Assembly (NCBI GenBank): GCA_964344965.1
Contig: CAYFPJ010000004.1
Coordinates: forward strand, 11,532-75,531
Source: an uncultured Gammaproteobacteria bacterium
GTDB taxonomy: Bacteria > Patescibacteriota > Patescibacteriia > Magasanikbacterales > UBA922
Length of the DNA stretch: 64,000 nucleotides
Direction of reading: 5' to 3'
In this document: positions 543 through 58,912 of the stretch, one piece after another
How positions within the stretch are numbered: the stretch's first letter is position 1
Layout: the number at the start of each line of letters is the position of its first letter
Notes under the pieces: model-generated
Seen by the model: only the letters and a program-made list of their open reading frames with translations
The model's database searches: none
What the model was told of the DNA's origin: nothing
Translations under genes and position numbers: made by a program

Positions 543-628
543 AAGTATGTTGTGTTGATTAGCTAATTTCTCCCCCTTTAGAAGGGGGAGTTAGAGGGGG
601 TTGCCTTGTTTAGCCCGGCAACCCCACC

Positions 629-1744
629 CTAGCCCTCCCCTTCTAAAGGGGAGGGAATAAAATCTAAGTTAGTTTTCAATTCACTCAAAATCCCTTCCAA
701 CTCCTCTATCGACTTCACTCGTACCAAGCGAGCACGAAATTCTTTGATCCCCGGAATAGGCATCGGCATACGTGAACTTTTGAAATACCAAGAAAGATGT
801 TTCCGGAAGGTGACAATGGTTGTTTTTTCCAAATCTTCTGCAGTGACACCTTCACTCCTATTCCTCGCAGACATGGCCCGCACTTTGGCTTGATTCTTCA
901 CATGTAGTTTTGCGTGCTCAAGAATTATAGGGATACGTTCATTAATTGATATAGGCAGTTGATCGGAAAGATCCTTCGCCTGCGGCTCAGGATGCCCCAA
1001 GGCGCTCTTGGCTTGTTTGAAGAACCAAGGATTACCAAGAGCACCTCTAGCAATCAAAACTCCATCTGCTCCAGTTTGCTCTAGACATTCCCAGACCTGT
1101 GCAGGCTGATGGATGTCTCCATTGGCAAGCAGTGGGACAGTGGCAATCTCTTTGGCCTGGCGAATCCTCTCCCAATCTGACACACCTGAATAACCCTGGG
1201 CTTTGGTCCGGCCGTGGATAGTGATAAGCTCTGCGCCAGCTTCTTCCATCGCTGGGATGAAGGTTTTGAATCTATCTGGATCACTCCAGCCTAGGCGGAT
1301 CTTCACTGATAATGGTGTCTCCCCTATCTCTTTTTTCATGGCTTTCACAATACTCGCTGCCAAATCAGGTTCTGTCATCAGAGCACAGCCATTGAAATTT
1401 GAAGTAAGCTTGTAGACTGGACAGCCCATATTGATGTCGATTCCTTCTGGATTGGCGTGCTCCATGACTATTGCAGCAGCTCTCGCCATAGTCTCTGGGT
1501 CTGCCCCAAAAATCTGCTGGACTATAGGTCTTTCTTCTTCTACAAAGTCTGTCATCCCAAGCGTTTTTTCATTATCACGAACTAGGGCCTCGCTAGAGAC
1601 CATTTCTCGGAATACAATATCAGCTCCACCGATCTTACGGACAATCTGACAAAATGCTGAGTCTGTCATATCTGCCATGGGCGAGAGGGCTAATATTGGT
1701 CTATTTTTTGATTGTATATTTTGTATCCAATTGCTCATAATCAA
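629..1744 (-). CDS. dus: tRNA-dihydrouridine synthase (Dus family, TIM-barrel FMN enzyme)
   Basis: 371-aa ORF; Dus-like motifs (LAPMADMTD, INMGCP, KIRLGW, LANGDI); the last ~9 codons and the stop lie inside G-rich palindromic element E1. Confidence 0.85.
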   Translation of the reverse strand: MIMSNWIQNIQSKNRPILALSPMADMTDSAFCQIVRKIGGADIVFREMVSSEALVRDNEKTLGMTDFVEEERPIVQQIFGADPETMARAAAIVMEHANPEGIDINMGCPVYKLTSNFNGCALMTEPDLAASIVKAMKKEIGETPLSVKIRLGWSDPDRFKTFIPAMEEAGAELITIHGRTKAQGYSGVSDWERIRQAKEIATVPLLANGDIHQPAQVWECLEQTGADGVLIARGALGNPWFFKQAKSALGHPEPQAKDLSDQLPISINERIPIILEHAKLHVKNQAKVRAMSARNRSEGVTAEDLEKTTIVTFRKHLSWYFKSSRMPMPIPGIKEFRARLVRVKSIEELEGILSELKTNLDFIPSPLEGEG

Positions 1745-2553
1745 AAAGGGCTCTTTATATTTTTCAAGGCGGGATTTGTTACTTTTGTATAAATTTGAGT
1801 TGTCCGGATGTTTGTATGTCCAAGTAATTCCTGTACATATCTAATGTCTACTCCATTTTCAAGCAGATGCGTGGCAAAACTGTGGCGCAGTGAATGAAAT
1901 GTGGCCTTTTTTGAAATACCAGACATTCGGAGAGCGTTTTCAAATATTTTTTGAACACTTCGCACTGCCATATTTCCTCCCCTATTGCTGACAAAAAGAT
2001 ACTCATCAGCAGTTCTTCCGGCTATCATAGAACGTAATTCAGAGACCAACTTGTCAGGAAGAACAGTGATACGATCTTTTTTGCCTTTTGCCTGTTTAAT
2101 ATGAATGGATAATTGTTCTGGATCTATATCTCCTACTTTTAAATTAACCAATTCGCTGATCCGTAGTCCAGCGGCATAAGATAGTGAGATAATCAATTTA
2201 TGTTTGGTATTGTTTATTTGCTCAATTATCTGCTGTATTTGATTTCTAGATAAAATGATTGGGATTTTTTTGCTCTTTTTTGGGTGTCGCAATGGTATGT
2301 AATCATTTCTTTGATATATTTCTCTGAATAAATAATTTATGGCATTGGCAATCAGGGAGAGTGTCTGTGGAGCATACCCTTTTTGTTGGGAGTAAACAAA
2401 AAACTGTTTAATTTCTTCTTCTGATAGTTCTTTTGGTATTTTTTTGGTGTGAGAACACAAGTCTTGAATTATGCGGACATAAGATGATATTGTTTTCTTG
2501 CTGTAATTGCGGAGTTTCATCTCCTGTGTTACTATATCAATAAGTTTTGGCAT
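1741..2553 (-). CDS. tyrosine-type site-specific recombinase / phage integrase family
   Basis: 270-aa ORF; C-terminal catalytic region HSLRHSFATHLLENGVDIRYVQELLGHTNIRTTQIYTKV (R..H..R..Y signature). Confidence 0.85.
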   Translation of the reverse strand: MPKLIDIVTQEMKLRNYSKKTISSYVRIIQDLCSHTKKIPKELSEEEIKQFFVYSQQKGYAPQTLSLIANAINYLFREIYQRNDYIPLRHPKKSKKIPIILSRNQIQQIIEQINNTKHKLIISLSYAAGLRISELVNLKVGDIDPEQLSIHIKQAKGKKDRITVLPDKLVSELRSMIAGRTADEYLFVSNRGGNMAVRSVQKIFENALRMSGISKKATFHSLRHSFATHLLENGVDIRYVQELLGHTNIRTTQIYTKVTNPALKNIKSPF

Positions 2554-2873
2554 ATTTTTTTGTCAAAAAGTACAGATATACTACATTATTTGTATATATT
2601 ACGCAAGAAGTTCGTATATACACTAGTTAGCTGAAATATCCCTTTTCTTTTTATTCCGCCTACGGCGGGATTTGTTCCAAAAATTTTCAAATTTCTTTTT
2701 CCAATTAGGAGTCCTTCGGACAATTATTTTATAGGGGAATAATTTGGAGTCTCGCTGTATGCTCAGCTCGACACTTTATTTATCTAAAATACGCCCTGGT
2801 CTGAACTTTTAATACGATTTGACATATTTAAGATTTAGTGCTATAGTTTGAATACAATATTCTATATTAAACT

Positions 2874-4010
2874 ATGTCCAACCCATCTTTTAAGGCTGGC
2901 AGCTTCTCCAAGCAATATGAATACAAAAGCTTCTCTCCCAGTCCAATAAACCAACCTTTCCACTGGTCTGACGAGCGTATTGATGTACTACTCGCAGATG
3001 CTATGCGCTATCTTGGCGAACTCAATGCCTATTCTTTGCTTGTACCTGACGTAGATTTTTTTATCAAAATGCACGTTATCAAAGAAGCGAACGTTTCGAG
3101 CAAAATCGAAGGAACAAAAACGGAATTGGATGAAGCTCTGATGACAGAAGAAGAAATTGACCCAGAAAAACGAGATGATTGGGAAGAAGTACAAAACTAC
3201 ATCAAAGCAATCAACCATTCTATCAAGAAACTCGACAAGCTCCCACTTTCGATGCGTCTCATAAAAGAATCACACAAGATATTACTCTCTGGTGTGCGCG
3301 GATCTGGTAAGCAACCGGGCAAAGTACGCACCAGTCAAAACTGGATTGGTGGATCATCACTGACAGATGCCTACTTCATTCCACCACATCACAGTGAACT
3401 TTCTGATCTGCTGAGTGACCTTGAAAAGTTTTGGCACAACAAAAAATTGCATGTTCCAGATCTCATCCGTATTGCACTCTCGCACTATCAATTCGAGACT
3501 ATTCACCCATTCCTCGATGGAAACGGACGTATTGGTCGCCTTCTCATTACACTCCACCTTGTGTCTCTCGGATATCTCAGAAAGCCATGCTTGTATTTGT
3601 CCGATTACTTCGAAAAACATCGTCGACAGTATTATGATGCGCTCGACAGACCTAGACAAAGTGATGATATCGAGCACTGGATCCGTTTCTTTCTAAACGG
3701 TGTGCTTGAGACTGCAAGAAAAGGAACTGAAACATTTGAGCAGATTGTTGCGCTCAGAAAAAAATACGAGGATATTATTGAAGCAAAAGTAGGGCTCCGT
3801 AGACAGAAAACTGCAAAGCAGCTCCTGCTTCATTTTTTCTCTGACCCTATTATGTCTGTAAAGCAGATGCAAGAAGTGCTTGACTGTAGCTTCCCTACCG
3901 CCAGTGCATTGGCAGCTGATTTTGAAAAGATTGGACTTTTGAAAGAAAAAACCGGCTATTCGAGAAACCGTATTTTTGTGTTGGAGGAGTATTTGAATTT
4001 GTTTAGGTAG
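2874..4010 (+). CDS. Fic/DOC family protein (putative AMPylase)
   Basis: 378-aa ORF with the canonical Fic motif [12 protein letters not shown]. Confidence 0.85.
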
Positions 4011-4066
4011 GGTAAAATACAATCACAAAGAAAAAAACATACTCTTAAAACTCAACACTACATACT

Positions 4067-6103
4067 ATGCCAAAATCAATCGAACCAAATATAGCAGACC
4101 TCGTAAACGGCTGGCTAAAGACCTACAAGCTCGACTACAAGTTAGGGCAGGAATCTTTGAATACGGAAATCGACAAAGCGCTGACTGACTACTTCACAAA
4201 GAATGGCGGTTCGGGCGCCAATCGACCCGATGCAAAGCTCCTTCTGCAGGATAAAAACCTCGATTTTTTTCCGGTTCTGATCGAATACAAAGGCTACAAA
4301 GACAAGCTCGTTAAACAGGGCAGTGATGGGCAGGTAGAAAATAAAACTACCAAGAACGAGCCGAATTTCAAAAATATGAATTCCTACGCTGTGAACGGAG
4401 CGGTGCACTATGCCAACGCCCTTTTGCACCACACCAGCTACACCGATGTTATCGCTATTGGTGTCACTGGACACAAAGACGAGACAGAAAAAATCCATCA
4501 CGAAATTGGCGTGTATTTTGTATCAAAAAGCAATCTTGGAGCCGGTCAGAAAGTTGGTGAATACACCGATTTGTCATTTTTGAAGGCAGAAAATTTTGAT
4601 GAGTTTATCGAAAAGGTAAAGAGTTTAAGTCTCACTCAAGAAGAAATCGACAAGCTCAAAGAACAGCGAGAAAAAGAAATAAATGCTAGCCTTGTAAAGC
4701 TCAATAACGATATTTATCAAAACGAAAAAGGCTTGGGAGAAAATGACCGCGTCTATCTTGTAGCCGCCTCCATCATTGCCACCATTGGTATCCCGGGCAA
4801 AGTGTCACCTCTTGAAAAATCAGACCTCAAGTCCTCTAGCGAAAAAGGAAATACCGATGGCGACATCATGGTCAGAAAGATTAAAGCCTTTTTGAGTGAA
4901 AAAGCGCTACCAGAAGAGAAAAAGGATCTCATTTTGCGCACACTCCAAAACACCCTCACAACCAACAACATAAACAAAGTAGAAAATGGTGAAAGTCAAC
5001 TCAAACGAGTGTTCTCTAAAATCGTAGACGACCTCGGCATTTATTACAAAATTGGTCTCACAACAGACTTTACCGGCAAACTCTTTAACGAAATGTACGG
5101 CTGGCTTGGCTTCTCTCAAGACAAGCTCAATGATGTGGTTCTTACCCCCTCATACGTAGGAACACTTCTCGTAAAATTAGCACGTGTCAACAAAGATTCC
5201 TATGTGTGGGACTTCGCGACTGGTTCGGCAGGGCTTTTGGTCGCGGCAATGAATGAGATGCTCAACGATGCCAAACAATCTATCAAATCTCCCGATAAAC
5301 TTACGCAAAAAGAAATCAAAATCAAGACCGAGCAGCTTCTCGGACTTGAGCTCCTCTCCAGTGTGTACATGTTGGCGATTCTCAACATGATCCTCATGGG
5401 CGACGGTAGTTCAAACATTTTGAATCAAGATTCCTTGAAAGACTTTGACGGAAAATACGGCTTTGGCAAAACCGATAGTGATTTCCCAGCCGATGCCTTC
5501 ATCCTTAATCCACCATATTCTGCCCCAGGGAACGGTATGAATTTTGTCGAAAAAGCCCTTGGTATGATGGGCAGAGGCTACGCGGCTATCATCATCCAAA
5601 GCTCAGCCGGCAGTGGGAAGGCAATAGAATACAACAAACGCATACTCCAAAAACACACGCTCATTGCGAGCATTAAAATGCCAGATGATTTGTTCATCGG
5701 CAAGTCAAGCGTGCAGACACGTGTGTATGTGTTCAAGGTAAATGAAAAGCACCAACTAGACGAGATGGTGAAGTTTATTGATTTTACAAACGACGGCTAC
5801 ACCAGAACCAACCGCAAAAAAGCCAGCAATAACCTACGCGACACCGATAACGCCAAAGAGCGCTATGAGGAACTCGTAAACCTCGTACGCTTTGGCAAGA
5901 GCAAGCTTAATATTTTTACTGAAGCCGAATACTACGAAAACACCATCGATCCAGACAATGGCGCCGACTGGAACCAATCCGCGCCAATAGATACCACACC
6001 AACCATCGCCGATTTTAAAAAGACCGTTGGTGATTATCTCGCGTGGGAAGTTGGCAATATCTTAAAACAGCAAACCAAAGACGAGCCGTCGGGAAAAGCC
6101 TAG
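4067..6103 (+). CDS. hsdM: N6-adenine DNA methyltransferase, type I R-M HsdM-like
   Basis: 678-aa ORF; SAM-binding motif DFATGSAG and catalytic NPPY motif; immediately followed by an HsdS-like gene. Confidence 0.75.
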   Translation: MPKSIEPNIADLVNGWLKTYKLDYKLGQESLNTEIDKALTDYFTKNGGSGANRPDAKLLLQDKNLDFFPVLIEYKGYKDKLVKQGSDGQVENKTTKNEPNFKNMNSYAVNGAVHYANALLHHTSYTDVIAIGVTGHKDETEKIHHEIGVYFVSKSNLGAGQKVGEYTDLSFLKAENFDEFIEKVKSLSLTQEEIDKLKEQREKEINASLVKLNNDIYQNEKGLGENDRVYLVAASIIATIGIPGKVSPLEKSDLKSSSEKGNTDGDIMVRKIKAFLSEKALPEEKKDLILRTLQNTLTTNNINKVENGESQLKRVFSKIVDDLGIYYKIGLTTDFTGKLFNEMYGWLGFSQDKLNDVVLTPSYVGTLLVKLARVNKDSYVWDFATGSAGLLVAAMNEMLNDAKQSIKSPDKLTQKEIKIKTEQLLGLELLSSVYMLAILNMILMGDGSSNILNQDSLKDFDGKYGFGKTDSDFPADAFILNPPYSAPGNGMNFVEKALGMMGRGYAAIIIQSSAGSGKAIEYNKRILQKHTLIASIKMPDDLFIGKSSVQTRVYVFKVNEKHQLDEMVKFIDFTNDGYTRTNRKKASNNLRDTDNAKERYEELVNLVRFGKSKLNIFTEAEYYENTIDPDNGADWNQSAPIDTTPTIADFKKTVGDYLAWEVGNILKQQTKDEPSGKA

Positions 6104-7246
6104 CCCCACTCGACAAGAAGCTACAAAAAGTTGAGTGGGGCGAATACAAGCTTGAGGACTTGTTTGTTGTTCAAACCGTCAAAAGTATCGACGAAGGAAA
6201 ATTAACCCTAGTCGATCACAAACAAGATGGATTATTTGAATTTGTAGGCAGGACGAGAGTTGGAAACGGAATAAAGGGCTATACAAAGAAATTAGATCTT
6301 GAGCCCAACCCTGAAGAGACAATTTCAATTACTCAAATTGGAACTATTGTTGCGCAACTGAGAAAAGAAAAATGGTATGCGAGCCAAAACATATTTTCTC
6401 TTACTCCAAAAGCAGAATATAAGAAGCTATTTTTCCTATACGGTGTTGCGGCAGTAGATAAGGCGCTGGTGAGTACATTTTCTGATGGTTATTCAAACTT
6501 ATCCGACGTTGAAAAAATTAAAGAAATTGAGAATCAAACTCCCCATCAAAAACGGTAAAATAGATTTTGCGTTTATGGAGAACTTCATAGCGGAGCTGGA
6601 GGCGGAGCGGATAGCGGAGCTGGAGGCGTATTTGGTAGCAAGCGGACTTAAAGACTATACGTTGACCAAGGAAGAAAAGAAAGTGTTGGCGGAGTTTGAA
6701 AGTGAAAACGTCACGTGGGGAGAATTCAAAATTGGTGATCTGTTTGCAATCAATCCTACGAAGTACTACAGGTTATCTAATGAGGAAATACTCTCAGGAA
6801 ATGGCAAAGTGCCTTTAGTCTCAAACTCCTCAACTAATAATGGAGTAATGGGATTTTCCGAATTGAAAGCAAACAACAGTGGAAATACCATAACTTGTTC
6901 TGACACAACTCTTGGCGCAGAAACCATGTACTACCAAAAGAATGACTTTATTGGTTATTCTCATATTCAACATTTTGTCCCAAAATTTGAGAGGTTTAAC
7001 AGACATATTGCAAGTTTCATTGTTTCTGCATCCAGAGTATCAACTTCAAAAAAGTATAATTATGGTCAAAAATTTAATCGAGAAGCAATGAATGGGACTG
7101 AAATTCAACTTTTGTCCAAAAACAACCAACCAGACTACAAAAAAATGGAGGCGTTTATTTCTGCTATCCAAAAACTGGTGATTAAAGATGTTGTGGAGTA
7201 CGCAGACAAAAAAATTGCTGCAACCAAAAAAGTGGTAAAGAAGTAA
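6043..7246 (+). CDS. hsdS: type I R-M specificity subunit HsdS with two target-recognition domains; the reading frame switches between two overlapping ORFs (6043-6558 and 6485-7246)
   Basis: Two ORFs with TRD-like sequence; central conserved region carries a tandem repeat [14 protein letters not shown] (direct DNA repeat ATAGCGGAGCTGGAGGCG); A6 tract near 6508; overlaps the hsdM 3' end. Confidence 0.6.
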
Positions 7247-8392: not shown

Positions 8393-8536
8393 ATAAAAGT
8401 AAATTTGGTTTAAGTAAGACTTCATCGGGCCATCCCCGCAGCAAGCTGCGGGGTATTGGCAGAAAATCTTATTTCAACCAATGTTAGTTTTCACTTTTTC
8501 GATGCAAGCATCGAGGAATAAAACCGCTTAAAGATT
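8393..8536 (+). repeat. ~145-bp interspersed repeat, copy A (internal hairpins CCCCGCAGC-AA-GCTGCGGGG and TCGATGC-AA-GCATCGA)
   Basis: Near-identical to copies at 29509, 37571, 40056 and 43439. Confidence 0.9.
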
Positions 8537-8556
8537 CAATCATAACGCATAACTAT

Positions 8557-9906: not shown

Positions 9907-10437
9907 ATGCAACACTGGAGAGACCAGGCGGAAAAAAATGGATTGAATATACAAGAGCATGGCAGTTGTCAATTATGTGGTGCTCAGGTTGATGGCGGTA
10001 TTGCAGAATGTGTTACTATGTCAGATATTGTCACCCACAAGCTCAACCACGAAGATGCTGTGGCAAACATGACGATTTTTCTTTGTACAGATGCCCATGC
10101 GCTGCAGCACTCGGAAATTCACGGGCGATGGAACAACCATTTTCATCTTGCTCGTCTCCATTTGATTTTGAACAAAAACATACACTGGAATTATGAGCTT
10201 TCTCCAAAACTCAGTAGTGTAATTGACAAATACAAAACTCTGCATCCAGACAACAGAATATCTGCACCAGAACCAAAACAACGCGGGGCTTTTACAGTTT
10301 TTGAGCTAGGGAAAACGAGCGACCCAAAAGAATACGTAGATCTTGTTCAGCGTTGGGCAACAGAAGTACACGAAACCTATGCTTCAGGACACCATACTGC
10401 AGAAGACATTTCCGGTTTGCTTGCGGCAGAGAACTAA
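9907..10437 (+). CDS. hypothetical protein
   Basis: 176-aa ORF with no recognised motif; stop immediately abuts palindromic element E2. Confidence 0.5.
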   Translation: MQHWRDQAEKNGLNIQEHGSCQLCGAQVDGGIAECVTMSDIVTHKLNHEDAVANMTIFLCTDAHALQHSEIHGRWNNHFHLARLHLILNKNIHWNYELSPKLSSVIDKYKTLHPDNRISAPEPKQRGAFTVFELGKTSDPKEYVDLVQRWATEVHETYASGHHTAEDISGLLAAEN

Positions 10438-10440
10438 GAA

Positions 10441-10497
10441 GTGTTTGGGGGAGGGGCAATTCACCCCTTTAATTCCCCTCTTCCCCCTCCCCCAAAC
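10441..10497. repeat. G/C-run palindromic element E2 (GTTTGGGGGAGGGG...CCCCTCCCCCAAAC)
   Basis: Nested perfect inverted repeat; member of the family at 571, 32403, 58803, 47659 and 36841. Confidence 0.8.
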
Positions 10498-29508: not shown

Positions 29509-29652
29509 ATAAAAGTAAATTTGGTTTAAGTAAGACTTCATCGTGCCATCCCCGCAGCAAGCTGCGGGGTATTGGCATAAAATTCTATTTCAACCAATGT
29601 GAGTCTTCACTTTTTCGATGCAAGCATCGAGGAATAAAACCACTTAAAGATT
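29509..29652 (+). repeat. ~145-bp interspersed repeat, copy B (most divergent, ~8 substitutions)
   Basis: Sequence identity to copies A, C, D and E. Confidence 0.9.
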
Positions 29653-29686
29653 TAATGATATCTAACATCTCTGACAAATCTAAAAA

Positions 29687-30999: not shown

Positions 31000-32397
31000 T
31001 TGATTTTTTGGCTTAATTACGGTAGTATTATACTTGAAAAAATACGAAAAAGCAACCCTCGCTTTATGCCTTACCCAGTTATAATACTGACTAGAAAAAT
31101 TAGAATAGCAATCATGGTTTCACTAATTGTGGCATTTTTTATTATCTCTCCCATAGTGCTTCTGTACACTGCAGGCTATAGATATGATTTCAAAAATCAT
31201 AAAATCAAAGAAACAGGAGTAATTAGTATTGACATCAAACCAAAAGATGCAACTGTATACCTAAATGGTGTCAAACTACAGGATAAAATCCCCGTCCGCC
31301 TGACCAATCGTTTACCTGGAAACTATAGTATAAAAATCACCAAAGAAGGCCACCAAGATTGGCAAAAAAATATTACTGTTGAGAGTAAAAAAAGTAGTTA
31401 TATTAAGGATATTATCCTATATAAAGAAAATCTACCTTCAAAAATACTAGATCTTGATGACACACTAGTGTCTGTCCAACCCAGTCTCCACAGTAGATAC
31501 ATTGCAAATATTTATAAAATAAAAAATATTTTTGAAATAAAAATACTAGACCCAAAGGAAGCCAAGGAAATCCTAGTATTGAGAGAAAAATTAGACAGTA
31601 TCCCAGAAATAGAATGGTCAAAAAATGGTAATGAAATTTCTATAAAAACAAGAGAAGAAAATAATGAAAAAATAACTCTTTTCTCTGCAAACAAAAATAG
31701 TATTATAAATAGTTATGCTATAACTTCAAAAAATGGTCTTTCCAAAATCCAATGGTCTGATGGAAAATTATTTGTCCAAGATGGTACAAAAATAAAAATA
31801 ATTGAAGAAAACAATATTGAAACAATTGCAACAAGCTCATCTACTATCTGGTTTGCAGACAACAAAAATGATTTTTGGTATATTGATCTTTCTTCAAATA
31901 ATCTGAAAACTACCATAGATGGGCAAGAGAAATCAATTCACTTTCCACTAAAAAATATAAATAAAATAATTAATGCAACAGAAAATACTACCATTGTGCA
32001 AAATGATAACAAAAAAATTTCAATAATAAAGCACAATGGAAAAGAGGTAGAGAATGTAAAAAATATTCCCTCAACTTTTTTTGTATACAACGATGATCTA
32101 AAAGAGTGGATTGCCTGGGATCAGTGGGAAATATGGCATATCTACCAAGACGGTAGCTCAAAGCTGCTAAGTAGGCTCGATCGCTCCATAGATAATATCT
32201 CTATACTAGACAAATTTGGCAATTTGATTTTACTTTCAAAAAACAAAATATTAGCATTTGATCCAAATTACCATGTCACTCATACTCTAGTAGAAGATGC
32301 AGAAGTAAAAAAAATGTGGACTGACATAGAGAATAGAACTCTGTATTTTATTGGTTCACACAGTGGCGAGGAAGGAATGTACGAATTAGAGTATTAA
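31000..32397 (+). CDS. PEGA-domain membrane-anchored protein
   Basis: N-terminal TM helix; PEGA-like segment DIKPKDATVYLNGV...PGNYSIKITKEGHQDW. Confidence 0.55.
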   Translation: MIFWLNYGSIILEKIRKSNPRFMPYPVIILTRKIRIAIMVSLIVAFFIISPIVLLYTAGYRYDFKNHKIKETGVISIDIKPKDATVYLNGVKLQDKIPVRLTNRLPGNYSIKITKEGHQDWQKNITVESKKSSYIKDIILYKENLPSKILDLDDTLVSVQPSLHSRYIANIYKIKNIFEIKILDPKEAKEILVLREKLDSIPEIEWSKNGNEISIKTREENNEKITLFSANKNSIINSYAITSKNGLSKIQWSDGKLFVQDGTKIKIIEENNIETIATSSSTIWFADNKNDFWYIDLSSNNLKTTIDGQEKSIHFPLKNINKIINATENTTIVQNDNKKISIIKHNGKEVENVKNIPSTFFVYNDDLKEWIAWDQWEIWHIYQDGSSKLLSRLDRSIDNISILDKFGNLILLSKNKILAFDPNYHVTHTLVEDAEVKKMWTDIENRTLYFIGSHSGEEGMYELEY

Positions 32398-32402
32398 AAA
32401 AC

Positions 32403-32500
32403 TTCCCCTTTTGGAGGAGGTCGGGAAAGGTTCGTACCAACATAGAGGATATTGATTTACGACAACGAACCCCCTCTAACTCCACCTAAAAGGGGGAGAA
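32403..32500. repeat. G/C-run palindromic element E3
   Basis: TTCCCCTTTTGGAGG ... stem GGTTCGT/ACGAACC ... CCACCTAAAAGGGGGAG. Confidence 0.75.
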
Positions 32501-36162: not shown

Positions 36163-37281
36163 TTAGTGTTTCCACCACTTCCTTATCTCCCTCCAACTTA
36201 TTTTTCGCCTACCTCTTATTTCATATCTCTTATTTCTCAAATCCTTCCTATTCTTCCACACCTCCTTAAGTCCCTTCAATACACTTCTGTCAAACAAAAG
36301 AAACCAGCCAAACTTCTTCAATTCATACCATTTTATCCACAAAAAATCAAGTAGCCAGTTTTGCCAATACTCGTTTTTGTAAATAGTCATTAATTGATTT
36401 TTGTAACTATGATATTTCACCCAGTTGGATTGCTTTTTTTTGTTTTTGGAGGCAAAGAAGTCTCCTGTGTTCTCCAATCCCTCAGCAGAGCGATCATGAT
36501 AAGCGACTGTATCTAGAAGTACACAAGCCTTATACCCAGCTTGTCTAAGACGAAAAGCCAAATCTACGTCTTCTTTATAAGAACCGTAGCTCTGGTCCAA
36601 AAAAGTTCCATCAGAAAACTGAACTGCCTCAGCAGCCTGACGACGAAGCATGGGGAAAGCTCCAGACACTCCGAACACTTCCATAGCGTCCCCCTGGGTG
36701 CGATAGCTAGTCATTACTTTTGGCTTAATCTTTTCCCACTCCTTACCAGTATATTTCTCTATCACCCGCCGATTCCGAAATACTTTCAAACCAAGTGAGT
36801 CAATTTTATTTGTAAATGAGCACTGAAGCAAGGAAAAATCCGCCCCCCCTTGTAGGGGGGGCTGGGGGGGGTTATCACCAAGCACACCAAAATCCCACCG
36901 CATTAGTCTAGGACTCACCGCAGCCACATCTTTTCGAATATCCATAAACTTCACCATCCTTTCAAAACAGTTTTTCAAAAGATACATATCCTGATTAAGA
37001 AGCAAAAAATATTCTGATTGCTGATCACCGCTCACTGATCTCTGGTATAGCAAATTATGACCTCCTGCAAAGCCAAGATTTTCTCTGTTTTCGATCAGCC
37101 TCACCTCAACTGGAAAATCTGCTATCTCAGCTTTGATACTAGCAGCAGTGTCATCACTAGATCCATTATCAAGTACCACGAGTCGCCAATTTGTAAACTC
37201 TTGTTTGCGTAGAGAGTCAAAAAGATATGGAACATATTTGGCTCCATTCCAAGTAACCAGTTGTACTACTAATTTAGACAT
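36163..37281 (-). CDS. family 2 glycosyltransferase (GT2) carrying an in-frame palindromic-element insertion
   Basis: GT2 motifs (VVLDNGSSDDT, DMYLL); element E6 at 36841-36876 encodes GDNPPQPPLQGGA in frame. Confidence 0.8.
   Translation of the reverse strand: MSKLVVQLVTWNGAKYVPYLFDSLRKQEFTNWRLVVLDNGSSDDTAASIKAEIADFPVEVRLIENRENLGFAGGHNLLYQRSVSGDQQSEYFLLLNQDMYLLKNCFERMVKFMDIRKDVAAVSPRLMRWDFGVLGDNPPQPPLQGGADFSLLQCSFTNKIDSLGLKVFRNRRVIEKYTGKEWEKIKPKVMTSYRTQGDAMEVFGVSGAFPMLRRQAAEAVQFSDGTFLDQSYGSYKEDVDLAFRLRQAGYKACVLLDTVAYHDRSAEGLENTGDFFASKNKKKQSNWVKYHSYKNQLMTIYKNEYWQNWLLDFLWIKWYELKKFGWFLLFDRSVLKGLKEVWKNRKDLRNKRYEIRGRRKISWREIRKWWKH
36841..36876. repeat. G/C-run palindromic element E6 (CCCCCCCTTGTAGGGGGGG + GGGGGGGGTTATC), intragenic and in frame
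   Basis: Perfect hairpin with 7-bp G/C arms inside a CDS. Confidence 0.75.
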
Positions 37282-37570: not shown

Positions 37571-37715
37571 ATAAAAGTAAATTTGGTTTAAGTAAGACTT
37601 CATCGGGCCATCCCCGCAGCAAGCTGCGGGGTATTGGCAGAAAATCTTATTTCAACCAATGTTAGTTTTCACTTTTTCGATGCAAGCATCGAGGAATAAA
37701 ACCGCTTAAAGATTT
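37571..37715 (+). repeat. ~145-bp interspersed repeat, copy C
   Basis: Identical to copy D; the 3' end supplies the last 17 codons and stop of gene 37662-38204. Confidence 0.9.
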
Positions 37716-38204
37716 AAGTTCCAATTCTATTTCTTTGCCAATTCTTCCATAAAAAATCTCTTTTGATTTTGGCATTCTCTTGGTTTTTCTGTTTGTGACG
37801 TTAGTTACGATATCTCCATGGGCAGACGTATTGACAGCCATCATGTTTCTTAAAAAAAATTTTCTCTCCTCTTCAGATAAAGAATTATTCCAACCGCCCT
37901 GATTCAAAAAATTAGAAAAGGCTCTAACACAATCAAATCCGTAATGCAATTCTACCCATAAAAAAAACAGGTGTTGATCAGTCGGGCTTCCTCTAGAAAC
38001 CCTAAAACTTTCTGTAATAAAAGAAATAAACGATTGTCTGGTAATCCGATCCCCTTCCCGATACAAAACAATATCATCCTTACTCTGCGGAGCATTCTCC
38101 GGATCAAAATCTTCTGGTGTCAAAAAATAACGTTCAGGTTTACCTGTGTCTCGTGCATCTGTTTGAGTGACATCTGGTCTACGACCTGGTTTTGGGTCTG
38201 TCAT
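37662..38204 (-). CDS. hypothetical protein
   Basis: 180-aa ORF whose C-terminus is encoded by repeat copy C. Confidence 0.5.
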   Translation of the reverse strand: MTDPKPGRRPDVTQTDARDTGKPERYFLTPEDFDPENAPQSKDDIVLYREGDRITRQSFISFITESFRVSRGSPTDQHLFFLWVELHYGFDCVRAFSNFLNQGGWNNSLSEEERKFFLRNMMAVNTSAHGDIVTNVTNRKTKRMPKSKEIFYGRIGKEIELELKSLSGFIPRCLHRKSEN

Positions 38205-40055: not shown

Positions 40056-40200
40056 ATAAAAGTAAATTTGGTTTAAGTAAGACTTCATCGGGCCATCCCC
40101 GCAGCAAGCTGCGGGGTATTGGCAGAAAATCTTATTTCAACCAATGTTAGTTTTCACTTTTTCGATGCAAGCATCGAGGAATAAAACCGCTTAAAGATTT
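40056..40200 (+). repeat. ~145-bp interspersed repeat, copy D
   Basis: Identical to copy C; supplies the stop codon of gene 40191-40718. Confidence 0.9.
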
Positions 40201-40718
40201 AAATCTGTTATACTTTTTGTTATTTCTTCCCCCAATATTTCAGCCAAAATTTCCATTTTCCCTGCTGCAATTTCTTGTCGAACCTCGTAAGATTGCTTGT
40301 TCAATTCCACCAACTTATCATCAACATCATAGATAGAAGGTGTCCAAGATTCTCCCTCTCGATATACAGAATAATTTATTTCATGCAATTGTAAATAATT
40401 ATTCAACGCTCTTTTTTCTTCGTCAGTCAAATTTGGATACCTCTTTTTGAATTCTTCAAATATTATTTTTGAAAATGCTATAGTGAGTTCATACTGATAC
40501 CACTCTCTATCTAAATCACAATCTCCATGTTCCAAATCATCAGGAAAAAGACTGAGGGGATATTTTTTGGCATCTTTTTTTGTAGCCAAAGCATCATCCC
40601 TACCCAGAGTGTCTCTGTAAGTCTCTAACTTTCTTTTTTCTTTGATGAGTCTTTCTAATTGTTGTGTAATTTGCCTTCCAGCCTCTGCACTTGGCCACTT
40701 ACCTTGCAGTATTCCCAT
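40191..40718 (-). CDS. hypothetical protein
   Basis: 175-aa ORF. Confidence 0.5.
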   Translation of the reverse strand: MGILQGKWPSAEAGRQITQQLERLIKEKRKLETYRDTLGRDDALATKKDAKKYPLSLFPDDLEHGDCDLDREWYQYELTIAFSKIIFEEFKKRYPNLTDEEKRALNNYLQLHEINYSVYREGESWTPSIYDVDDKLVELNKQSYEVRQEIAAGKMEILAEILGEEITKSITDLNL

Positions 40719-43438: not shown

Positions 43439-43582
43439 ATAAAAGTAAATTTGGTTTAAGTAAGACTTCATCGGGCCATCCCCGCAGCAAGCTGCGGGGT
43501 ATTGGCAGAAAATCTTATTTCAACCAATGTTAGTTTTCACTTTTTCGATGCAAGCATCGAGGAATAAAACCGCTTAAAGATT
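43439..43582 (+). repeat. ~145-bp interspersed repeat, copy E
   Basis: Identity to copies A, C and D. Confidence 0.9.
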
Positions 43583-43709
43583 AAAATTGATATTTTCCTT
43601 ATTTTAGCAAAATATGAATTTTCCGCATATCTATTTTCTAAAAATATTTAGCTAAATTAAGCCAAACGAGTCTAATTCACACTACTCGTAATTTAGTAAT
43701 TCAAAATAA

Positions 43710-47345: not shown

Positions 47346-49556
47346 ATGAAGAACGTTTCCAAAAAACAATACCTGATAGCTGCAAGCGGCGCTACATTAC
47401 TTTTGTTATTGAACATTTTCTTTTTGAACAGTATCTTGATTGGCATCACAGCCATCATCCTCTATGGCTACGTTTTCAGCAGATTTATCGCTGATATTTT
47501 TTTGTCAGAAGAAAACCAAGGCAGACTATTTTATGGCTTTTTACTACTCCTGACTGGAGAGATACTAACCAACACTGCCCTCTACTATCTCCACGGCATC
47601 ACACCAGTCACCGTTGCCATCGCCCTACTTCTACCGTTCCTACTATTTCTATCATCAAAATCTCTCCCCCTTTATAAGGGGGAGATGGCCGCAGGCCAGA
47701 GGGGGTTGCGTGGCAGAGCCCCATTTCTTGGCATAGCCAACATCCTCCTAAACATCGCTCTCCTCACAACTCTCTTCCTAAACCAAACAACATCCCTAAT
47801 GCCCTCCCCCTGGCAAGCGGTAAACCACTGGTTTTTCATCACCTTCGCTATTTCCACTGCATTTCTAATCCTGTTCGTCTCTAAAAATAAAAATTATCAG
47901 ACTAGCATCTTCGCAATGGCAGTGCACCTGTTTGTGATGTTTGGTGTGGCAGCCATCCTCTATCCACTGGGCTATGGCTTCGATGCCTTCATCCACCGCG
48001 CAACTGAAGAATGGATCTTACTGAATGGTAGTATCTTGCCAAAAACTCCTTACTATATTGGCCAGTACAGTCTAGTTGCTTGGCTGGCTCATATTACTTC
48101 CCTGCCAATTTTCTATCTTGATGTCTATCTTGTCCCGATCTTAGCGTCTATTTCCTTGCCAATCGTAGTTTCCAATGTGCTAAAAAAAATCTGGAACATA
48201 CCGTACAAAGTTGGAATCCTTCTCACACTTTTCATTCCTTTCATCCCCTTTCTTTCTCTTCATCTCACCACTCCTCACAACCTGGTAATCTTATTTACAA
48301 TTCTTATTGTCTTCACCACTCTTGGCTATTTGAAAAATAAAACACCCCTAATTATTCCCTTCTCCCTCTCCCTCGCTTCTCTCGCCACCCACCCCCTAGT
48401 CGCTGCTCCTACTTTTGTTTTTCTTATTGCAACAATGATCATTAAAAAAACATCCGCCAGAGGACGGACCAGCCTCTGGCTGGAAAAACTATCTCCTATC
48501 TCCTATCTCCTATCTTTTTTACTAATCACCCTCACAGTCCCAATTCTCTTCATCCTCAACAATTTCCTCGCCAATGCTCCCCTACCAACATTCACCAATC
48601 CTCTGTCAAGTCTACCTTACTTCCTAGAACTCTTTGCCCGCCCCTACTGGTATCTTGAAAATGCTCCGATAATTTATGAACTCCTCTACACTTGGCAACT
48701 TTTGATAATTCCAATTGCGATTTCCCTCTGCTTCGCTGGATTTTTCATATCCAAAAAAAAGCTCAAAGCTGAGTATCTATTTCCAATAGCAACAATATCA
48801 TTCTTCCTCAGTGCCTGGCTCCTACGCAGTTGGATCGTCTTCCCCGACGTCGTCTCCTACGAACAAGGCGACTATCCCCTCCGCCTCCTCAAAACCAGCC
48901 TCATCTTCATCCTCCCCTTCGGAACGTTCATGATTTATAAAATACTTGCAAACTTGCAAACTTACAAACTTACAAACTTAAGCAAAACCAGAAAAACAGC
49001 AATGACTATCACGTTAGTGACAATCATCTCAGCATCGCTCATGCTCTCCTTCTACTTCTCCTATCCTCAAAGAAACATCAAATCCCGCTTCCCCGGCTTC
49101 AATATCACCGCTGCTGATTTCCAGGCTGTCGAATGGATTCATGAAAGAGAGAAAAAAACTTTCCGAAGCATAGGAAGGATTGATGGACCCTCTTTATTTT
49201 TATCGACACAAGTCGCAGAAATCGATTACATTGTACTATCAAATCAACTTGTCTCTGCTAGCGCGCTCACAAAATACAGCTTTGCCAAATATTTCCAAAC
49301 TGAGTCAGGAGAAATATTTTACTATTCAATCCCTACTGGTGGAAAACTATACCAACAATACGGCAAGATGCTCTATGAAGGACAAAAGCGAGAGTATATG
49401 GAAGATGCCATGCAGATTGCTGGAGTGGACAAAGCTTACTTTGTCGTAAACTCTTACTGGGCCAATGCTGATAAAATTATTGAAGGAGCGAAAGAAAGTG
49501 CTGATGGTTGGGAAGTGATTAATAATCAAGTCTGGATTTTTATTTATGAAAAATAA
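47346..49556 (+). CDS. large polytopic membrane protein, paralog of 44899-47127, with an in-frame palindromic-element insertion
   Basis: 736-aa ORF; element E5 at 47659-47716 encodes LPLYKGEMAAGQRGLRGRAPF in frame. Confidence 0.6.
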   Translation: MKNVSKKQYLIAASGATLLLLLNIFFLNSILIGITAIILYGYVFSRFIADIFLSEENQGRLFYGFLLLLTGEILTNTALYYLHGITPVTVAIALLLPFLLFLSSKSLPLYKGEMAAGQRGLRGRAPFLGIANILLNIALLTTLFLNQTTSLMPSPWQAVNHWFFITFAISTAFLILFVSKNKNYQTSIFAMAVHLFVMFGVAAILYPLGYGFDAFIHRATEEWILLNGSILPKTPYYIGQYSLVAWLAHITSLPIFYLDVYLVPILASISLPIVVSNVLKKIWNIPYKVGILLTLFIPFIPFLSLHLTTPHNLVILFTILIVFTTLGYLKNKTPLIIPFSLSLASLATHPLVAAPTFVFLIATMIIKKTSARGRTSLWLEKLSPISYLLSFLLITLTVPILFILNNFLANAPLPTFTNPLSSLPYFLELFARPYWYLENAPIIYELLYTWQLLIIPIAISLCFAGFFISKKKLKAEYLFPIATISFFLSAWLLRSWIVFPDVVSYEQGDYPLRLLKTSLIFILPFGTFMIYKILANLQTYKLTNLSKTRKTAMTITLVTIISASLMLSFYFSYPQRNIKSRFPGFNITAADFQAVEWIHEREKKTFRSIGRIDGPSLFLSTQVAEIDYIVLSNQLVSASALTKYSFAKYFQTESGEIFYYSIPTGGKLYQQYGKMLYEGQKREYMEDAMQIAGVDKAYFVVNSYWANADKIIEGAKESADGWEVINNQVWIFIYEK
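47659..47716. repeat. G/C-run palindromic element E5 (CTCCCCCTTTATAAGGGGGAG + GGGGGTTGCG...), intragenic and in frame
   Basis: Perfect hairpin inside a CDS. Confidence 0.75.
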
Positions 49557-55670: not shown

Positions 55671-55709
55671 AAAACCTACCTAGTCAGGTGGGTTTTTATA
55701 TCCAAAAAT

Positions 55710-56215: not shown

Positions 56216-56530
56216 TTATTTGACAGTACCAATCTTCACCTTTGTCTTCTTCTGTCTATGACCAATCACCCTCTTGTAGCGAACTTTACGCTTGAACTTC
56301 ACGACGCGAATCTTCTTGTCGCGAGTCTGGGACTCAACAGTGGCGGCAACACTTACCCCTTCGAGATAAGGAGTACCGATCTGTACATCAGAGCCGTCTT
56401 CCTTAGCCAAAAGAAGAACTTTTTCAAAAACTACTTCCTTACCAGGTTCGACGTCTAATTTTTCAATTTTTAGAGTTTGTCCTGACTTGATCAGGTATTG
56501 CTTACCGCCGGTCTGAATTACTGCGAACAT
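56216..56530 (-). CDS. rplU: 50S ribosomal protein L21
   Basis: MFAVIQTGGKQY...; bL21 family. Confidence 0.9.
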   Translation of the reverse strand: MFAVIQTGGKQYLIKSGQTLKIEKLDVEPGKEVVFEKVLLLAKEDGSDVQIGTPYLEGVSVAATVESQTRDKKIRVVKFKRKVRYKRVIGHRQKKTKVKIGTVK

Positions 56531-56641
56531 ATTTTTTAGGTATTAGGTATTTAGGTTATAGGTGTTTAGGAAATTTACCCACCGGAGCTTTAGCGTAGGT
56601 GAGCGTGAATAGTTTACCTGTTTTCAACCAATAAGTCAAGT

Positions 56642-57109
56642 CTAGTCCTCCACAAGGGACATTTTGTCCCCTATTTTGAGGTCATGTGCTACTGCCCAGC
56701 CAGATTGAAGCTCTAAGACCATAGTAGAGTCAATTCTAGGTGTATATACCCGCAATTGCTCCTCTGGGACATCTTCTGGCTCCACACTAGGTGCAATGTC
56801 CACCACCTCACCCTTATCTAGCCAGATAATATCAATTGGAAAATTCATGTCCCTCATCACTATGCCATGTTGCCCTGGAAATTCAAACAAAAACAACATT
56901 CCTTGATTTTGTTCCAACTTATTCCTTCCTCCCAAACCTTTGTATCTCTGTTGGATAGTTTTGGGTAGCCAAACATTCAGAATCTCACCGTTTAGGAAGA
57001 CTTTTTTCACTGGGATCCTGTATTGCCAAAATTGTAGTGCCACAAAAGCAATGAAAAAAATTGTTAGAAAAAAGATTCCGATTTTGCTTACTTTAATTTG
57101 GTTAGGCAT
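56642..57109 (-). CDS. DUF192 domain protein
   Basis: N-terminal TM helix; GMLFLFEF...IDIIWLD pattern. Confidence 0.65.
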   Translation of the reverse strand: MPNQIKVSKIGIFFLTIFFIAFVALQFWQYRIPVKKVFLNGEILNVWLPKTIQQRYKGLGGRNKLEQNQGMLFLFEFPGQHGIVMRDMNFPIDIIWLDKGEVVDIAPSVEPEDVPEEQLRVYTPRIDSTMVLELQSGWAVAHDLKIGDKMSLVED

Positions 57110-57188
57110 ATTTTCCTATATCCTATAACGTATAACCTATAGCCTATATGTAACTAACACATACAGGTTACAAGTTATAAGTTACACG

Positions 57189-58241
57189 TTATAAGCCTTT
57201 CTTCTTACTAAACCAAACTCCCAAAAGTAACATCAAAATAAACAGTAGCACCAAAGCAATCATCTTCTCACTACTCTGCAAAAATAACGTCGTTACCCCA
57301 AACAAAAATGAAATAGCATACATGAGAAGCACTGCTTGCTTTTGGGTCAGGCCAGATTCAATCAGTTTGAAATGCAAGTGCTCACTGTCCCCAACATGGA
57401 TTGGTTTTTTCTTTTGGATCCTTCTTATTATAACACGAATTACGTCTAGTGCGGGGATACCCATTACTAGAAGTGTGGTAGCAATCTTACCGCCAGAAAT
57501 AATAGCTAAGGCCCCGATCATAAAGCCAGTAAATAGACTACCACCTTCGCCCAAGAATATCTTGGCTGGATGCCAATTCCAGGCCAAAAATCCAAGACAG
57601 CTACCAGCAAAAATAATTGACAAGAGTGCTACTTCTGGTTGATACCATGGCTCCTGGAGACTAAGAGCGAAGATCATCATCGCCCCAATAGTGACCACAC
57701 CAGTAACCAATCCGTCTAACCCATCAAGAAACTTGGTGGTAAACATCATTCCCATCAACCAAAAGAAAACTACCAAATCTGCCAAAATTACCCAATTACC
57801 CAAACCAGCAAGCGACAGAGTCCACTGGTCTAGAGAAACTACCCCGCCCCAAGGATTAGTAATTTCATGAGGCCCAATGCCAAAAGCAATAATGATAGTA
57901 GCAGCCAAAATTGGAAAAATAATTTGTTTTTTTGCCCTCAGATTGTACTTATCATCCAGTAGACCTCCAATCATCAAGACCAGACCTCCCCAAAACAAAC
58001 CCCAAATATGGCGTGGTAATACATCATTTCCAAAATGACTGGAAAGCAAAAGAAAAGTAATCAAAAAAAAGCTAAAAAAAATTGCCATTCCTCCTCCGAG
58101 TGGAATTTTCTTCTTGTGAATCTTACGTTTCTCTGTCCGAGGAGCGTCTACAATGTGATACTTCTGCATCAAGATCCGAACCAGAGCAGTGGCAAAAAGA
58201 GAGGCAAAAAAAGTAATAATAAAATAACCAAAATATTGCAT
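57189..58241 (-). CDS. MraY/WecA-family polyprenyl-phosphate N-acetylhexosamine-1-phosphate transferase (likely MraY)
   Basis: 10-11 TM helices; DD..D motif (LLDDKYNL); DGLDGL motif; H-rich loop PIHVGDSEHLHF. Confidence 0.6.
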   Translation of the reverse strand: MQYFGYFIITFFASLFATALVRILMQKYHIVDAPRTEKRKIHKKKIPLGGGMAIFFSFFLITFLLLSSHFGNDVLPRHIWGLFWGGLVLMIGGLLDDKYNLRAKKQIIFPILAATIIIAFGIGPHEITNPWGGVVSLDQWTLSLAGLGNWVILADLVVFFWLMGMMFTTKFLDGLDGLVTGVVTIGAMMIFALSLQEPWYQPEVALLSIIFAGSCLGFLAWNWHPAKIFLGEGGSLFTGFMIGALAIISGGKIATTLLVMGIPALDVIRVIIRRIQKKKPIHVGDSEHLHFKLIESGLTQKQAVLLMYAISFLFGVTTLFLQSSEKMIALVLLFILMLLLGVWFSKKKGL

Positions 58242-58443
58242 AATTTGTATATGACAATGTCAACTAATATTGTACCTCAATCTATATTCTTTTACAAAAC
58301 AAAAAAAGACCCCAACCTCGCTCACTCCTTGCCAATATTTCCAATAAACCTGTCCTGCGAAGCTTCAGCGAAGCAGGATGAAAATATCAGCAAGTCGCGC
58401 GAGGCCAAGGTCCTCTCCAAATGCGTGACTCTAGCCCTTTCCT

Positions 58444-58707
58444 CTAGGAGCGCCGAAGCTCCGTACGGAGCCAAGCGACGAAGCAGACCACAAAGACAAG
58501 CGCCAGTGGCACAAACAGGGCCAAAGAAAAAGGCTCTGAAGCTGCCGCCCACAGTCCCACAAAAGGACTGAAACAGACGGCCGCCACAGCACCAAATCCC
58601 GGGCTCTTCTCAACACGCCAGCAAAACAGCGCGCCGAGGGCCAGGTAGGTGCTAACGATCCACCCCACAATAACCATTTCCGCCTCCGCGGCGATATGAG
58701 GGTTCAT
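58444..58707 (-). CDS. hypothetical small membrane protein encoded in a GC-rich island
   Basis: ~87 aa from an internal ATG preceded by GAGGG; 2-3 TM helices; overlapping alternative-frame ORFs look like GC-driven artefacts. Confidence 0.4.
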   Translation of the reverse strand: MNPHIAAEAEMVIVGWIVSTYLALGALFCWRVEKSPGFGAVAAVCFSPFVGLWAAASEPFSLALFVPLALVFVVCFVAWLRTELRRS

Positions 58708-58802
58708 TCCCTCTCTTCTTACTTTTTTTGTCAAAAATTAAGAAGAGAAAGAATGTAAAACATGTAAAAAATAAACCACAGAAATAGTGGTTTGTCAATT
58801 AT

Positions 58803-58912
58803 TATATTATCCCTCCCCTTTTAGGGGAGGTTAGGAGGGGTTACGGACTACCAAAATCTTTCTTGCTAAGTAACCCCCTCTAGCTCCCCCTAAAAGGGGG
58901 AGAAATTTTAAC
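58803..58912. repeat. G/C-run palindromic element E4 (three hairpins)
   Basis: CCTCCCCTTTTAGGGGAGG; GGAGGGGTTAC...GTAACCCCCTC; CTCCCCCTAAAAGGGGGAG; overlaps the stop of the Clp ATPase gene. Confidence 0.8.

Follow-up and report, generated by a model that had tools for sequence, protein, structure and literature searches.

The DNA analysed here, a stretch of 64,000 nucleotides (nt) from contig CAYFPJ010000004.1 of assembly GCA_964344965.1 that is called the window below, carries a family of short G/C-rich palindromic elements placed between genes and, in two cases, in frame inside protein-coding genes. An earlier note on the same stretch listed six of them (E1 to E6). Their repeat unit, which is also found in many other bacterial phyla, is compared below to the BoxC/PIT/TM motif of Escherichia coli and examined for its association with genes of the DUF559 family. 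The best relatives of the window proteins belong to Candidatus Magasanikbacteria (Candidate Phyla Radiation (CPR)/Patescibacteria) and the genome is small and gene-dense. The GC content of the window is 38.9% and not about 35% as previously given.

Repeat units and their positions in the window

Alignment of the half-elements gives a consensus unit of about 35 nt, TTCTCCCCC-TTTTA-GGGGGAG-YTA-GAGGGGG-TTRC. E1, E3 and E4 each consist of two inverted units separated by a variable centre of 15-30 nt, and E5 and E6 are single units (Table 1). The pattern CCCCYTTWNNAARGGGG has four matches in the window for 0.03 expected, and a structural regular expression finds five units against none in 20 shuffles. 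An nhmmer profile built from 388 units, all from other organisms, retrieves the left and right units of E1 and E4 (E1L, E1R, E4L, E4R), E6, E5 and the right unit of E3 (E3R, E 0.0029) at E ≤ 0.003; the left unit of E3 (E3L) gives a weak hit (E 1.5) and no further copy is found in the window. E2 resembles the family in its G/C composition and has a profile value of E 7.4, so that it is unsupported as a member. The family proposed in the earlier note is real and palindromic, with E1, E3, E4, E5 and E6 carrying the motif.

The stems are perfect over 7-10 bp in E1L, E1R, E4L, E4R, E5 and E6, and have one mismatch in E3R. A third block follows the hairpin and is a perfect mirror of the second one in E1L, E4L and E4R, after TTA, TTA and CTA, respectively; that of E1R, after CTA, is a mirror with one mismatch. 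The three hairpins formerly described for the long members can be drawn, but the minimum-energy fold predicted for these elements is a single long hairpin formed by pairing of the left with the right half (E1, -61.1 kcal/mol, z -5.95; E4, -49.2, z -4.2; E3, -36.5, z -3.0).

Table 1. Repeat elements of the window and the genes that host or adjoin them
Feature	Coordinates	Strand	Remarks
E1	568-657		inverted doublet; basis: sequence, profile (E 3.7e-8 and 2.3e-6), fold
E1 left unit	CTCCCCC 570-576; loop 577-583; GGGGGAG 584-590; TTA 591-593; GAGGGGG 594-600		last block is the mirror
E1 centre	601-621
E1 right unit	622-657		reverse orientation
dus-like ORF	629-1744	-	C-terminus IPSPLEGEG-stop from E1
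E2	10441-10497		G-first 15-bp hairpin directly after ORF 9907-10437; unsupported as member
E3	32401-32500		decayed doublet
E3 left unit	32402-32434		degenerate
E3 right unit	32466-32500		intact
Genes around E3	ends at 32397 and 32521		convergent; PEGA-domain ORF and NTP-transferase ORF, respectively
GT2 glycosyltransferase gene	36163-37281	-	host of E6
E6	36842-36873	+	single unit; profile E 5.5e-5
Polytopic membrane-protein gene	47346-49556	+	host of E5; no Pfam family; Magasanikbacteria-specific
E5	47663-47722	+	single unit with expanded second loop; profile E 2.6e-4
E4	58810-58904		inverted doublet between the Clp-ATPase stop and a terminator-like hairpin
E4 left unit	CCTCCCC 58812-58818; TTTTA; GGGGAGG 58824-58830; TTA; GGAGGGG 58834-58840		last block is the mirror
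E4 right unit	58870-58904

E1, E3 and E4 all lie 0-5 nt from stop codons. The overlap with stop codons claimed for E1 and E4 holds for E1, which encodes the last nine codons of the dus-like open reading frame (ORF) together with its TAG stop (629-631). E4 merely abuts the Clp-ATPase gene, ending about 3-5 nt short of its stop codon (58908-58910). Because a canonical terminator-like hairpin with a T-run (58771-58795) is found just past E4, the element seems to have inserted between the stop codon and the terminator of that gene.

This placement, together with a T-run after one arm of E3, could indicate that the elements are host regulatory signals, namely terminators, mRNA stabilisers or translation attenuators. 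Several observations speak against such a role: E1 and E4 do not score as intrinsic terminators, a terminator-like hairpin distinct from E4 follows it downstream, termination is no possible function for the copies within ORFs, and the PIT elements, to which the units are compared below, had neither promoter nor terminator activity in earlier experiments (cited in PMC4666352). A variant of the regulatory explanation bears on E6 and is considered with it.

Copies in frame inside protein-coding genes

The reading frames confirm that E5 and E6 are in frame inside the membrane-protein and GT2 genes. E6 has the layout GCCCCCCC-TTGTA-GGGGGGGC-T-GGGGGGGG-TT, with homopolymer tracts C8, C7 and G7, and its opposite strand is read as NPPQPPLQGGA (residues 137-147) in the GT2 protein. 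In an alignment of 37 orthologs this peptide belongs to a hypervariable loop that is bordered by two conserved motifs, PRLMRWDF and SFTNKIDSLGLK. The loop of the window protein is 30 amino acids long, and that of 109 orthologs mostly 10-20 (most commonly 10, 16 or 19). The location in a loop, raised in the earlier note, is also what structure prediction gives. In the AlphaFold model (mean predicted local distance difference test score, pLDDT, 83) residues 137-146 are part of a coil (135-146) between a strand/helix and helix 147-155, with a lower local pLDDT of 65-83.

Five contigs, obtained from three sequencing runs, encode exactly this protein with its insert, which is therefore no assembly artefact. 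In four insert-bearing orthologs the repeat itself is visible in the DNA. The window gene and P0004, whose proteins are 63% identical, share an identical 31-nt core, AACCCCCCCCAGCCCCCCCTACAAGGGGGGG, and P0001 and P0011 have a complete two-hairpin element at the E6 position. P0007, among the closer orthologs (67% identity), has no element in the loop, and neither the E6 nor the E5 sequence is present in the closest genome. When the loop is left out, a neighbour-joining tree, a crude one that carries no support values, scatters the four insert-bearing GT2 proteins, each beside insert-free sisters. The loop has thus gained inserts repeatedly and, given also the loop lengths and the insert-free orthologs, the E6 insert is not ancestral.

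The homopolymer tracts of E6 could alternatively be a slippage switch (C8, C7, G7) making the GT2 gene phase-variable, a variant of the regulatory explanation that finds an argument in poly-G/C tracts of glycosyltransferase genes being classical contingency switches. The conservation of the 31-nt core in two diverged GT2 genes is also compatible with a host function. Taken with the points raised above against terminators and other signals, a regulatory role in either form appears improbable.

Other repeat-like sequences occur in the same loop. Orthologs P0094, P0092 and P0095 of other Magasanikbacteria have loop peptides resembling the products of a different palindromic repeat, e.g. IPAKAGIQSQRNGDLDSRLRGNDK, so that the GT2 loop is apparently a general hotspot at which repeats insert in frame. 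The insert-free loop of P0007 (L005 1417-2511) contains 3.4 copies of an in-frame 7-nt tandem repeat (CTTCAGA), and the matching peptide pattern LQxxxxxLQD is present in many GT2 orthologs. A possible 15-nt imperfect duplication (GATTTT...TGCTT) surrounds E6.

E5 is organised as TCTCCCCC-TTTATAA-GGGGGAGA-13 nt-GAGGGGG-TTGC... and is read in frame as LPLYKGEMAAGQRGLRGRAP in a loop between transmembrane helices. This loop has an unrelated sequence of similar or greater length in orthologs. At the position of SSKSLPLYKGEMAAGQRGLRGRAPF in the window, the DNA of the closest ortholog encodes FTTRSEERATSKKNDLTLKPSNPLTAV, so that E5 replaces loop sequence rather than being a simple addition. The comparison with orthologs supports the earlier view of both segments as insertions: the nearest ones are without the E5 and E6 sequences and the loops are variable.

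Distribution of the unit across bacteria

A scan of species-representative genomes with the 19-mer pattern GGGGGAGYTAGAGGGGGTT identified at least 119 stretches, for about 9 expected at equal base frequencies according to our own arithmetic. They come from many Patescibacteria lineages, Omnitrophota, Planctomycetota, Poribacteria, Cyanobacteria, Gallionella and Nitrosomonadales (Proteobacteria), Aliivibrio, Marinomonas, Moraxella, Ignavibacteria, Bacteroidota, Cloacimonadota, Armatimonadota and Chloroflexota. The complementary C-block is nearly always found upstream of the 19-mer, though outside the search pattern, and many matches have an inverted partner 13-107 nt away; 40 inverted doublets were collected in loci other than those of the window. 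Two units of the same assembly have identical hairpin loops in 40% of pairs, units of different assemblies in 2.6%, which fits an amplification within genomes. Units are about three-fold depleted in open frames (24/109 against 368/545 random positions). Candidate in-frame units, in frames open for at least 40 codons on both sides, occur nevertheless in several other phyla.

These data bear on the likeness to Rickettsia palindromic elements (RPE) drawn in the earlier note. RPE were reportedly described by Ogata et al. in 2000 and 2002. Like E5 and E6, they are palindromic and lie in frame in unrelated protein genes, at sites compatible with the protein fold, in a small genome. Lineage-specific selfish palindromes of this type, arisen in the reduced lineage of the window, would account for two in-frame copies in tolerated loops of a small and gene-dense genome. 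A separate origin is however contradicted by units identical over at least 19 nt across phyla, including the cultured Aliivibrio, Marinomonas, Moraxella and cyanobacteria, by the units in open frames of other phyla, and by the fit to the BoxC/TM motif presented in the next section. RPE are moreover elements of about 100-150 bp, restricted to Rickettsia, with family-specific conserved peptides (PMC10969869). The intragenic copies of the window are single units of 32-60 nt of a pan-bacterial family. Size, host and spread, as compared from the descriptions of both families, argue against RPE membership, and we regard this explanation as very improbable. The likeness stands for behaviour, i.e. in-frame copies in tolerated loops; kinship and rarity do not.

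Two individual loci deserve mention. Moraxella osloensis plasmid pYHS1 (L208 660-740) has a head-to-head element, AACCCC...hairpin-hairpin...GGGGTT, in the 298-nt spacer between narG and narH, genes that abut in most bacteria. The element is unannotated and present in all seven related Moraxella plasmids, making an empty-site comparison uninformative. In L195 (1866-2170) a tandem array of units with a period of about 100 nt, resembling clusters of bacterial interspersed mosaic elements (BIME), adjoins a DUF559 gene.

Relationship to the BoxC/PIT/TM motif

BoxC and PIT repeats were reportedly described by Bachellier in the 1990s and by Hoyne et al. in 2000. A search of the literature with the sequence string of the repeat returned no relevant paper. 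The DNA flanking the E. coli ycjD gene reads CCCCTCGCCCC-TCT-GGGGAGAGGG-TTA-GGGTGAGGGG, which is the BoxC/PIT/TM_ECO motif. Its TM consensus is CCCTCNCCC-N3-6-GGGNGAGGG-N3-GGGNGAGGG, the second loop being TTA in type A and CCG in type B (Holder et al. 2015; PMC4666352). The 23 copies of E. coli K-12 are all intergenic and include five inverted A+B pairs, and copies are reported across E. coli strains (PMC4666352). For Microcystis the number given by Holder et al. is 443 motifs. Circular dichroism and nuclear magnetic resonance established that the motif folds as a purine-motif intrastrand triplex and excluded a quadruplex (PMC4666352), which makes the G-quadruplex potential proposed in the earlier note unlikely.

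The window units share with this motif a C-block, a complementary G-block, a 3-nt TTA loop and a mirror G-block. At the level of the family the two have in common inverted pairs, a mostly intergenic location, conserved stems with variable loops, and an occurrence in many phyla. Changes in block 2 are matched in block 3, which remains its mirror (GGGGGAG-TTA-GAGGGGG, GGGGAGG-TTA-GGAGGGG, GGGGAGGG-CTA-GGGTGGGG). In loci chosen by their protein only, mirror copies of the second block outnumber direct ones by 113 to 42 at the third block, and TTA is the commonest loop. This co-varying mirror symmetry leads us to assign the window units to the BoxC/PIT/TM family, an assignment made at the sequence level, and the mirror blocks predict a triplex layout for them. 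As seen from the distribution of the 19-mer, the family is not peculiar to a reduced lineage.

Differences are also found. The blocks of the window are 7 nt long (CTCCCCC) against 9 nt in E. coli (CCCTCNCCC), and no type B (CCG) loop was seen in the window. E5 and E6 are in frame in genes and E1 provides the C-terminus of one, unlike the E. coli TM copies, which are reported to be always intergenic. The host is a CPR bacterium, while BoxC/PIT/TM was described from E. coli, Enterobacter and cyanobacteria.

Other candidates did not fit. A cyanobacterial origin or a relation to HIP1 was rejected, there being zero GCGATCGC sites and the ortholog names pointing to Magasanikbacteria. Integron attC or dif-like sites, considered from a GTTRRRY-like core, were discarded in view of the scattered copies and the absence of cassette arrays. 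The elements have no Rfam match at gathering thresholds, only chance-level miRNA-like matches being obtained at E ≤ 10, and no relation of them to tRNA or tmRNA was found.

Association with DUF559 genes

Clustering of the ORFs located up to 400 nt from the units of the 19-mer loci (128 units) revealed a single recurrent protein, which is about 120 amino acids long and belongs to DUF559 (PF04480, E 1e-36). Compared to solved structures, the bracketed ORFs match 3HRL (E 1e-30) and, more weakly, 3R3P (E 4e-5), which is the homing endonuclease I-Bth0305I. The 19-mer loci contain eight DUF559 genes, six with units on both sides and two with units on one side. Genes bracketed by units include those at L095 1592-1954 and L109 6191-6562. 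Since these loci had been chosen by the repeat, 80 DUF559 genes were redrawn from metagenome contigs by protein similarity alone, 78 of which were evaluable. A perfect C-run hairpin is present within 130 nt upstream of the gene in 51/78 cases, downstream in 45/78 and on both sides in 37. The same hairpin is found in 13/612 windows at least 400 nt away and at 4/146 ends of other genes in the same loci (2.7%). The bracketing of DUF559 by units is thus specific and strong, and it appears to be undescribed in the literature on DUF559 or on the TM motif.

The geometry is consistent from locus to locus. Upstream, the hairpin is followed by 2-6 nt, a G-run, ATTT and 0-25 nt (in some loci up to 55) before the ATG; downstream, the stop codon is followed by 3-15 nt, a C-run and the hairpin. 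The third G-block often lies 4-25 nt before the ATG, a placement like that of a ribosome-binding site. The short elements of the window have the layout of this cassette without the gene. Specificity and geometry argue for a functional link between gene and repeat, and are compatible with DUF559 either driving the repeat or homing into it. DUF559 is a very large family, 7,922 clusters out of 8,000 candidates scored being retained at E ≤ 1e-15. Many members are on very short contigs, which is what repeats that interrupt assembly would produce. Membership of DUF559 in a defence system was considered with PADLOC and rejected, the only matches (DpdF, methyl-directed REase and HEase) being weak and at the domain level.

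The E. coli member is ycjD, an accessory gene found in 3,378/5,426 complete genomes. A type A TM lies 170 nt downstream of it in a locus that varies between strains, and a breakpoint between K-12 and S88 is located about 25 nt from the TM adjoining the gene. S88 has a TetR + RND efflux operon at the position downstream of ycjD. The K-12 ycjD-fabI spacer (L219 3030-3410) contains a relic of the 3' end of a second DUF559 gene (ETVLENIRQGLNR) followed by partial TM blocks, which suggests past tandem or nested cassettes at this locus. In Acinetobacter (L209-L218), unit-type hairpins are found upstream of the DUF559 gene. In Pseudanabaena (L221-L230, L064, L097), DUF559 is accompanied by helix-turn-helix and PIN genes, and hairpins flank it in L064 and L097.

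A putative DUF559 cassette and alternative explanations

We favour the hypothesis, with a probability of about 55%, that the window elements are copies of BoxC/PIT/TM and ORF-less relatives of a cassette in which units bracket a DUF559 gene. The C-block and its complementary G-block would form a hairpin, and the YTA loop and mirror G-block would complete a purine-motif triplex layout. Two inverted units around a short variable centre make up the 90-100-bp elements E1, E3 and E4, which can fold as one long hairpin, and the same two units around a DUF559 gene of about 120 codons, coding for a Vsr-like PD-(D/E)XK nuclease, would be the minimal cassette. Copies would multiply within a genome. In a gene-dense CPR genome they would survive only at harmless sites. 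E1, E3 and E4 would do so immediately behind stop codons and the others in tolerant loops, E5 and E6 persisting in surface or inter-helix loops with a stop-free frame and being presumably translated into Pro/Gly-rich peptides.

A broader proposal is more tentative. BoxC/TM may correspond to the ends and the ORF-less derivatives of an unrecognised pan-bacterial minimal selfish element whose sole gene codes for a DUF559 nuclease. The nuclease would recognise or cut the unit and so drive its copying, and ORF-less copies would be moved in trans. I-Bth0305I (3R3P) is a Vsr-fold precedent for a selfish DNA-cutting role; it resides in a group I intron, whereas the DUF559 cassette has palindromic flanks and no intron.

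Such an element would be reminiscent of repetitive extragenic palindromic (REP) sequences, BIMEs and REPINs, and of the REP-associated tyrosine transposases (RAYT). These systems also combine hairpin doublets, a bracketed small enzyme gene, no target-site duplication and amplification within genomes (PMC3333891; PMC3733652). The bracketed gene is here a PD-(D/E)XK DUF559 gene and not a Y1 HUH enzyme, there is no tag, and the sequence is shared across phyla instead of being species-specific. The elements could nonetheless be true REP/BIME repeats moved by RAYT (Y1 HUH), or MITEs (miniature transposable elements with inverted repeats) moved by a DDE transposase, given that the inverted doublets resemble REPINs or BIMEs and fold into long hairpins and that the absence of target-site duplication suits Y1-type mechanisms. 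The unit ends, TTCTCCCCC and GGGGGAGAA, are however devoid of the GTAG or CGTC tetranucleotide that tags REPs (PMC3733652). No Y1_Tnp or DDE transposase is encoded by 40 Pfam-scanned ORFs of the window, whose sole recombinase is a tyrosine recombinase by a type I restriction-modification (R-M) system, and neither family recurs near the 128 units. From the features expected of MITEs, terminal inverted repeats are present, with no flanking direct repeat in the 40 doublets and no related insertion sequence among the scanned ORFs or near the units. Both forms of this explanation are highly unlikely.

A more serious alternative is the published view of the repeats as structure-prone instability motifs with no dedicated enzyme, which would form triplexes or hairpins, provoke replication stalling and recombination, and spread by recombination and horizontal transfer; DUF559 genes would land at these hot spots or home into the centres of doublets. 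It is in line with the triplex formed in vitro and with the increased rearrangement at TM loci in a comparison of 56 E. coli strains, with no mobility genes near these loci (PMC4666352), with the K-12/S88 breakpoint next to ycjD, and with the DUF559 genes of Acinetobacter and Pseudanabaena fixed inside type I R-M operons. It accounts poorly for DUF559 being the only recurrent neighbour of the units, for a hairpin at 2.7% of other gene ends against about 60% of DUF559 ends, and for a tight, repeated geometry, G-block before the ATG and C-block after the stop, that resembles one integrated cassette. We therefore consider it rather unlikely.

A number of observations weigh against the DUF559 cassette as the source of the window elements. 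Neither a DUF559 gene nor, among the 40 Pfam-scanned ORFs, a transposase or a RAYT is found in the window, so that the link of DUF559 to this genome is indirect; no Magasanikbacteria protein is named among the best 120 DUF559 matches. The tested loci are the best 80 relatives of queries linked to units, and the result may hold for just one subfamily. Around the E. coli TMs, Holder et al. found neither a transposase or integrase nor any further mobility gene (PMC4666352). TMs are reported across E. coli strains (PMC4666352), while 38% of complete E. coli genomes do not have ycjD: the repeat persists without the gene. The DUF559 genes of Acinetobacter (P0302) and Pseudanabaena (P0246) are always between hsdS and hsdR in type I R-M operons, and an identical protein was never seen in different genomic contexts in these two genera. 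A resident accessory or defence gene fits this constant position as well as a mobile one. Furthermore, no target-site duplication is consistent across the 40 doublets, and no clean empty site was found.

We know of no enzyme, origin or spreading mechanism assigned to BoxC/PIT/TM since the 1990s and, to our knowledge, stand-alone DUF559 proteins form a very large family with neither a known activity nor an assigned function. The new elements provided here are the CPR host, the in-frame intragenic copies and the DUF559 association. The BoxC/TM family reaches CPR bacteria and is tolerated there inside coding sequence; its repeated gain in the loop of a GT2 protein involved in surface polysaccharides makes it a source of protein-loop variation. 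Should the broader proposal be correct, a repeat that has been an orphan for 30 years would be accounted for by a system like REP/RAYT with another enzyme fold, and a selfish element would remodel protein loops in frame in gene-dense genomes. What moves BoxC and what DUF559 does are joined by the bracketing in one bench-testable hypothesis, for which E. coli YcjD is a ready model.

The mobile GC clusters of yeast mitochondria offer another parallel, as short G+C-rich palindromes in an A+T-rich genome that are sometimes in frame in coding sequence. They are organellar, of unrelated sequence, and have no associated nuclease gene of the DUF559 type. In its main lines the earlier observation from which this analysis started was largely correct.

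Other features of the window

The tyrosine recombinase gene (1741-2553, - strand) has as neighbours the gene of a Fic protein (2874-4010) and those of the methylase (4067-6103) and specificity subunit (6485-7246) of type I R-M. hsdR was not seen at this locus (1741-7246), in which R-M may be phase-variable or of the shufflon type.

Another repeat, about 146 nt long and unrelated to the first, is present in five near-identical intergenic copies, all on the + strand (8393-8538, 29509-29654, 37571-37716, 40056-40201 and 43439-43584). Rfam gives no match for it, even with the threshold relaxed to E 0.1. Its predicted fold is a long imperfect hairpin followed by a terminator-like one (-48.8 kcal/mol, z -5.8). 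The copies could represent a MITE or, alternatively, a family of small-RNA genes.

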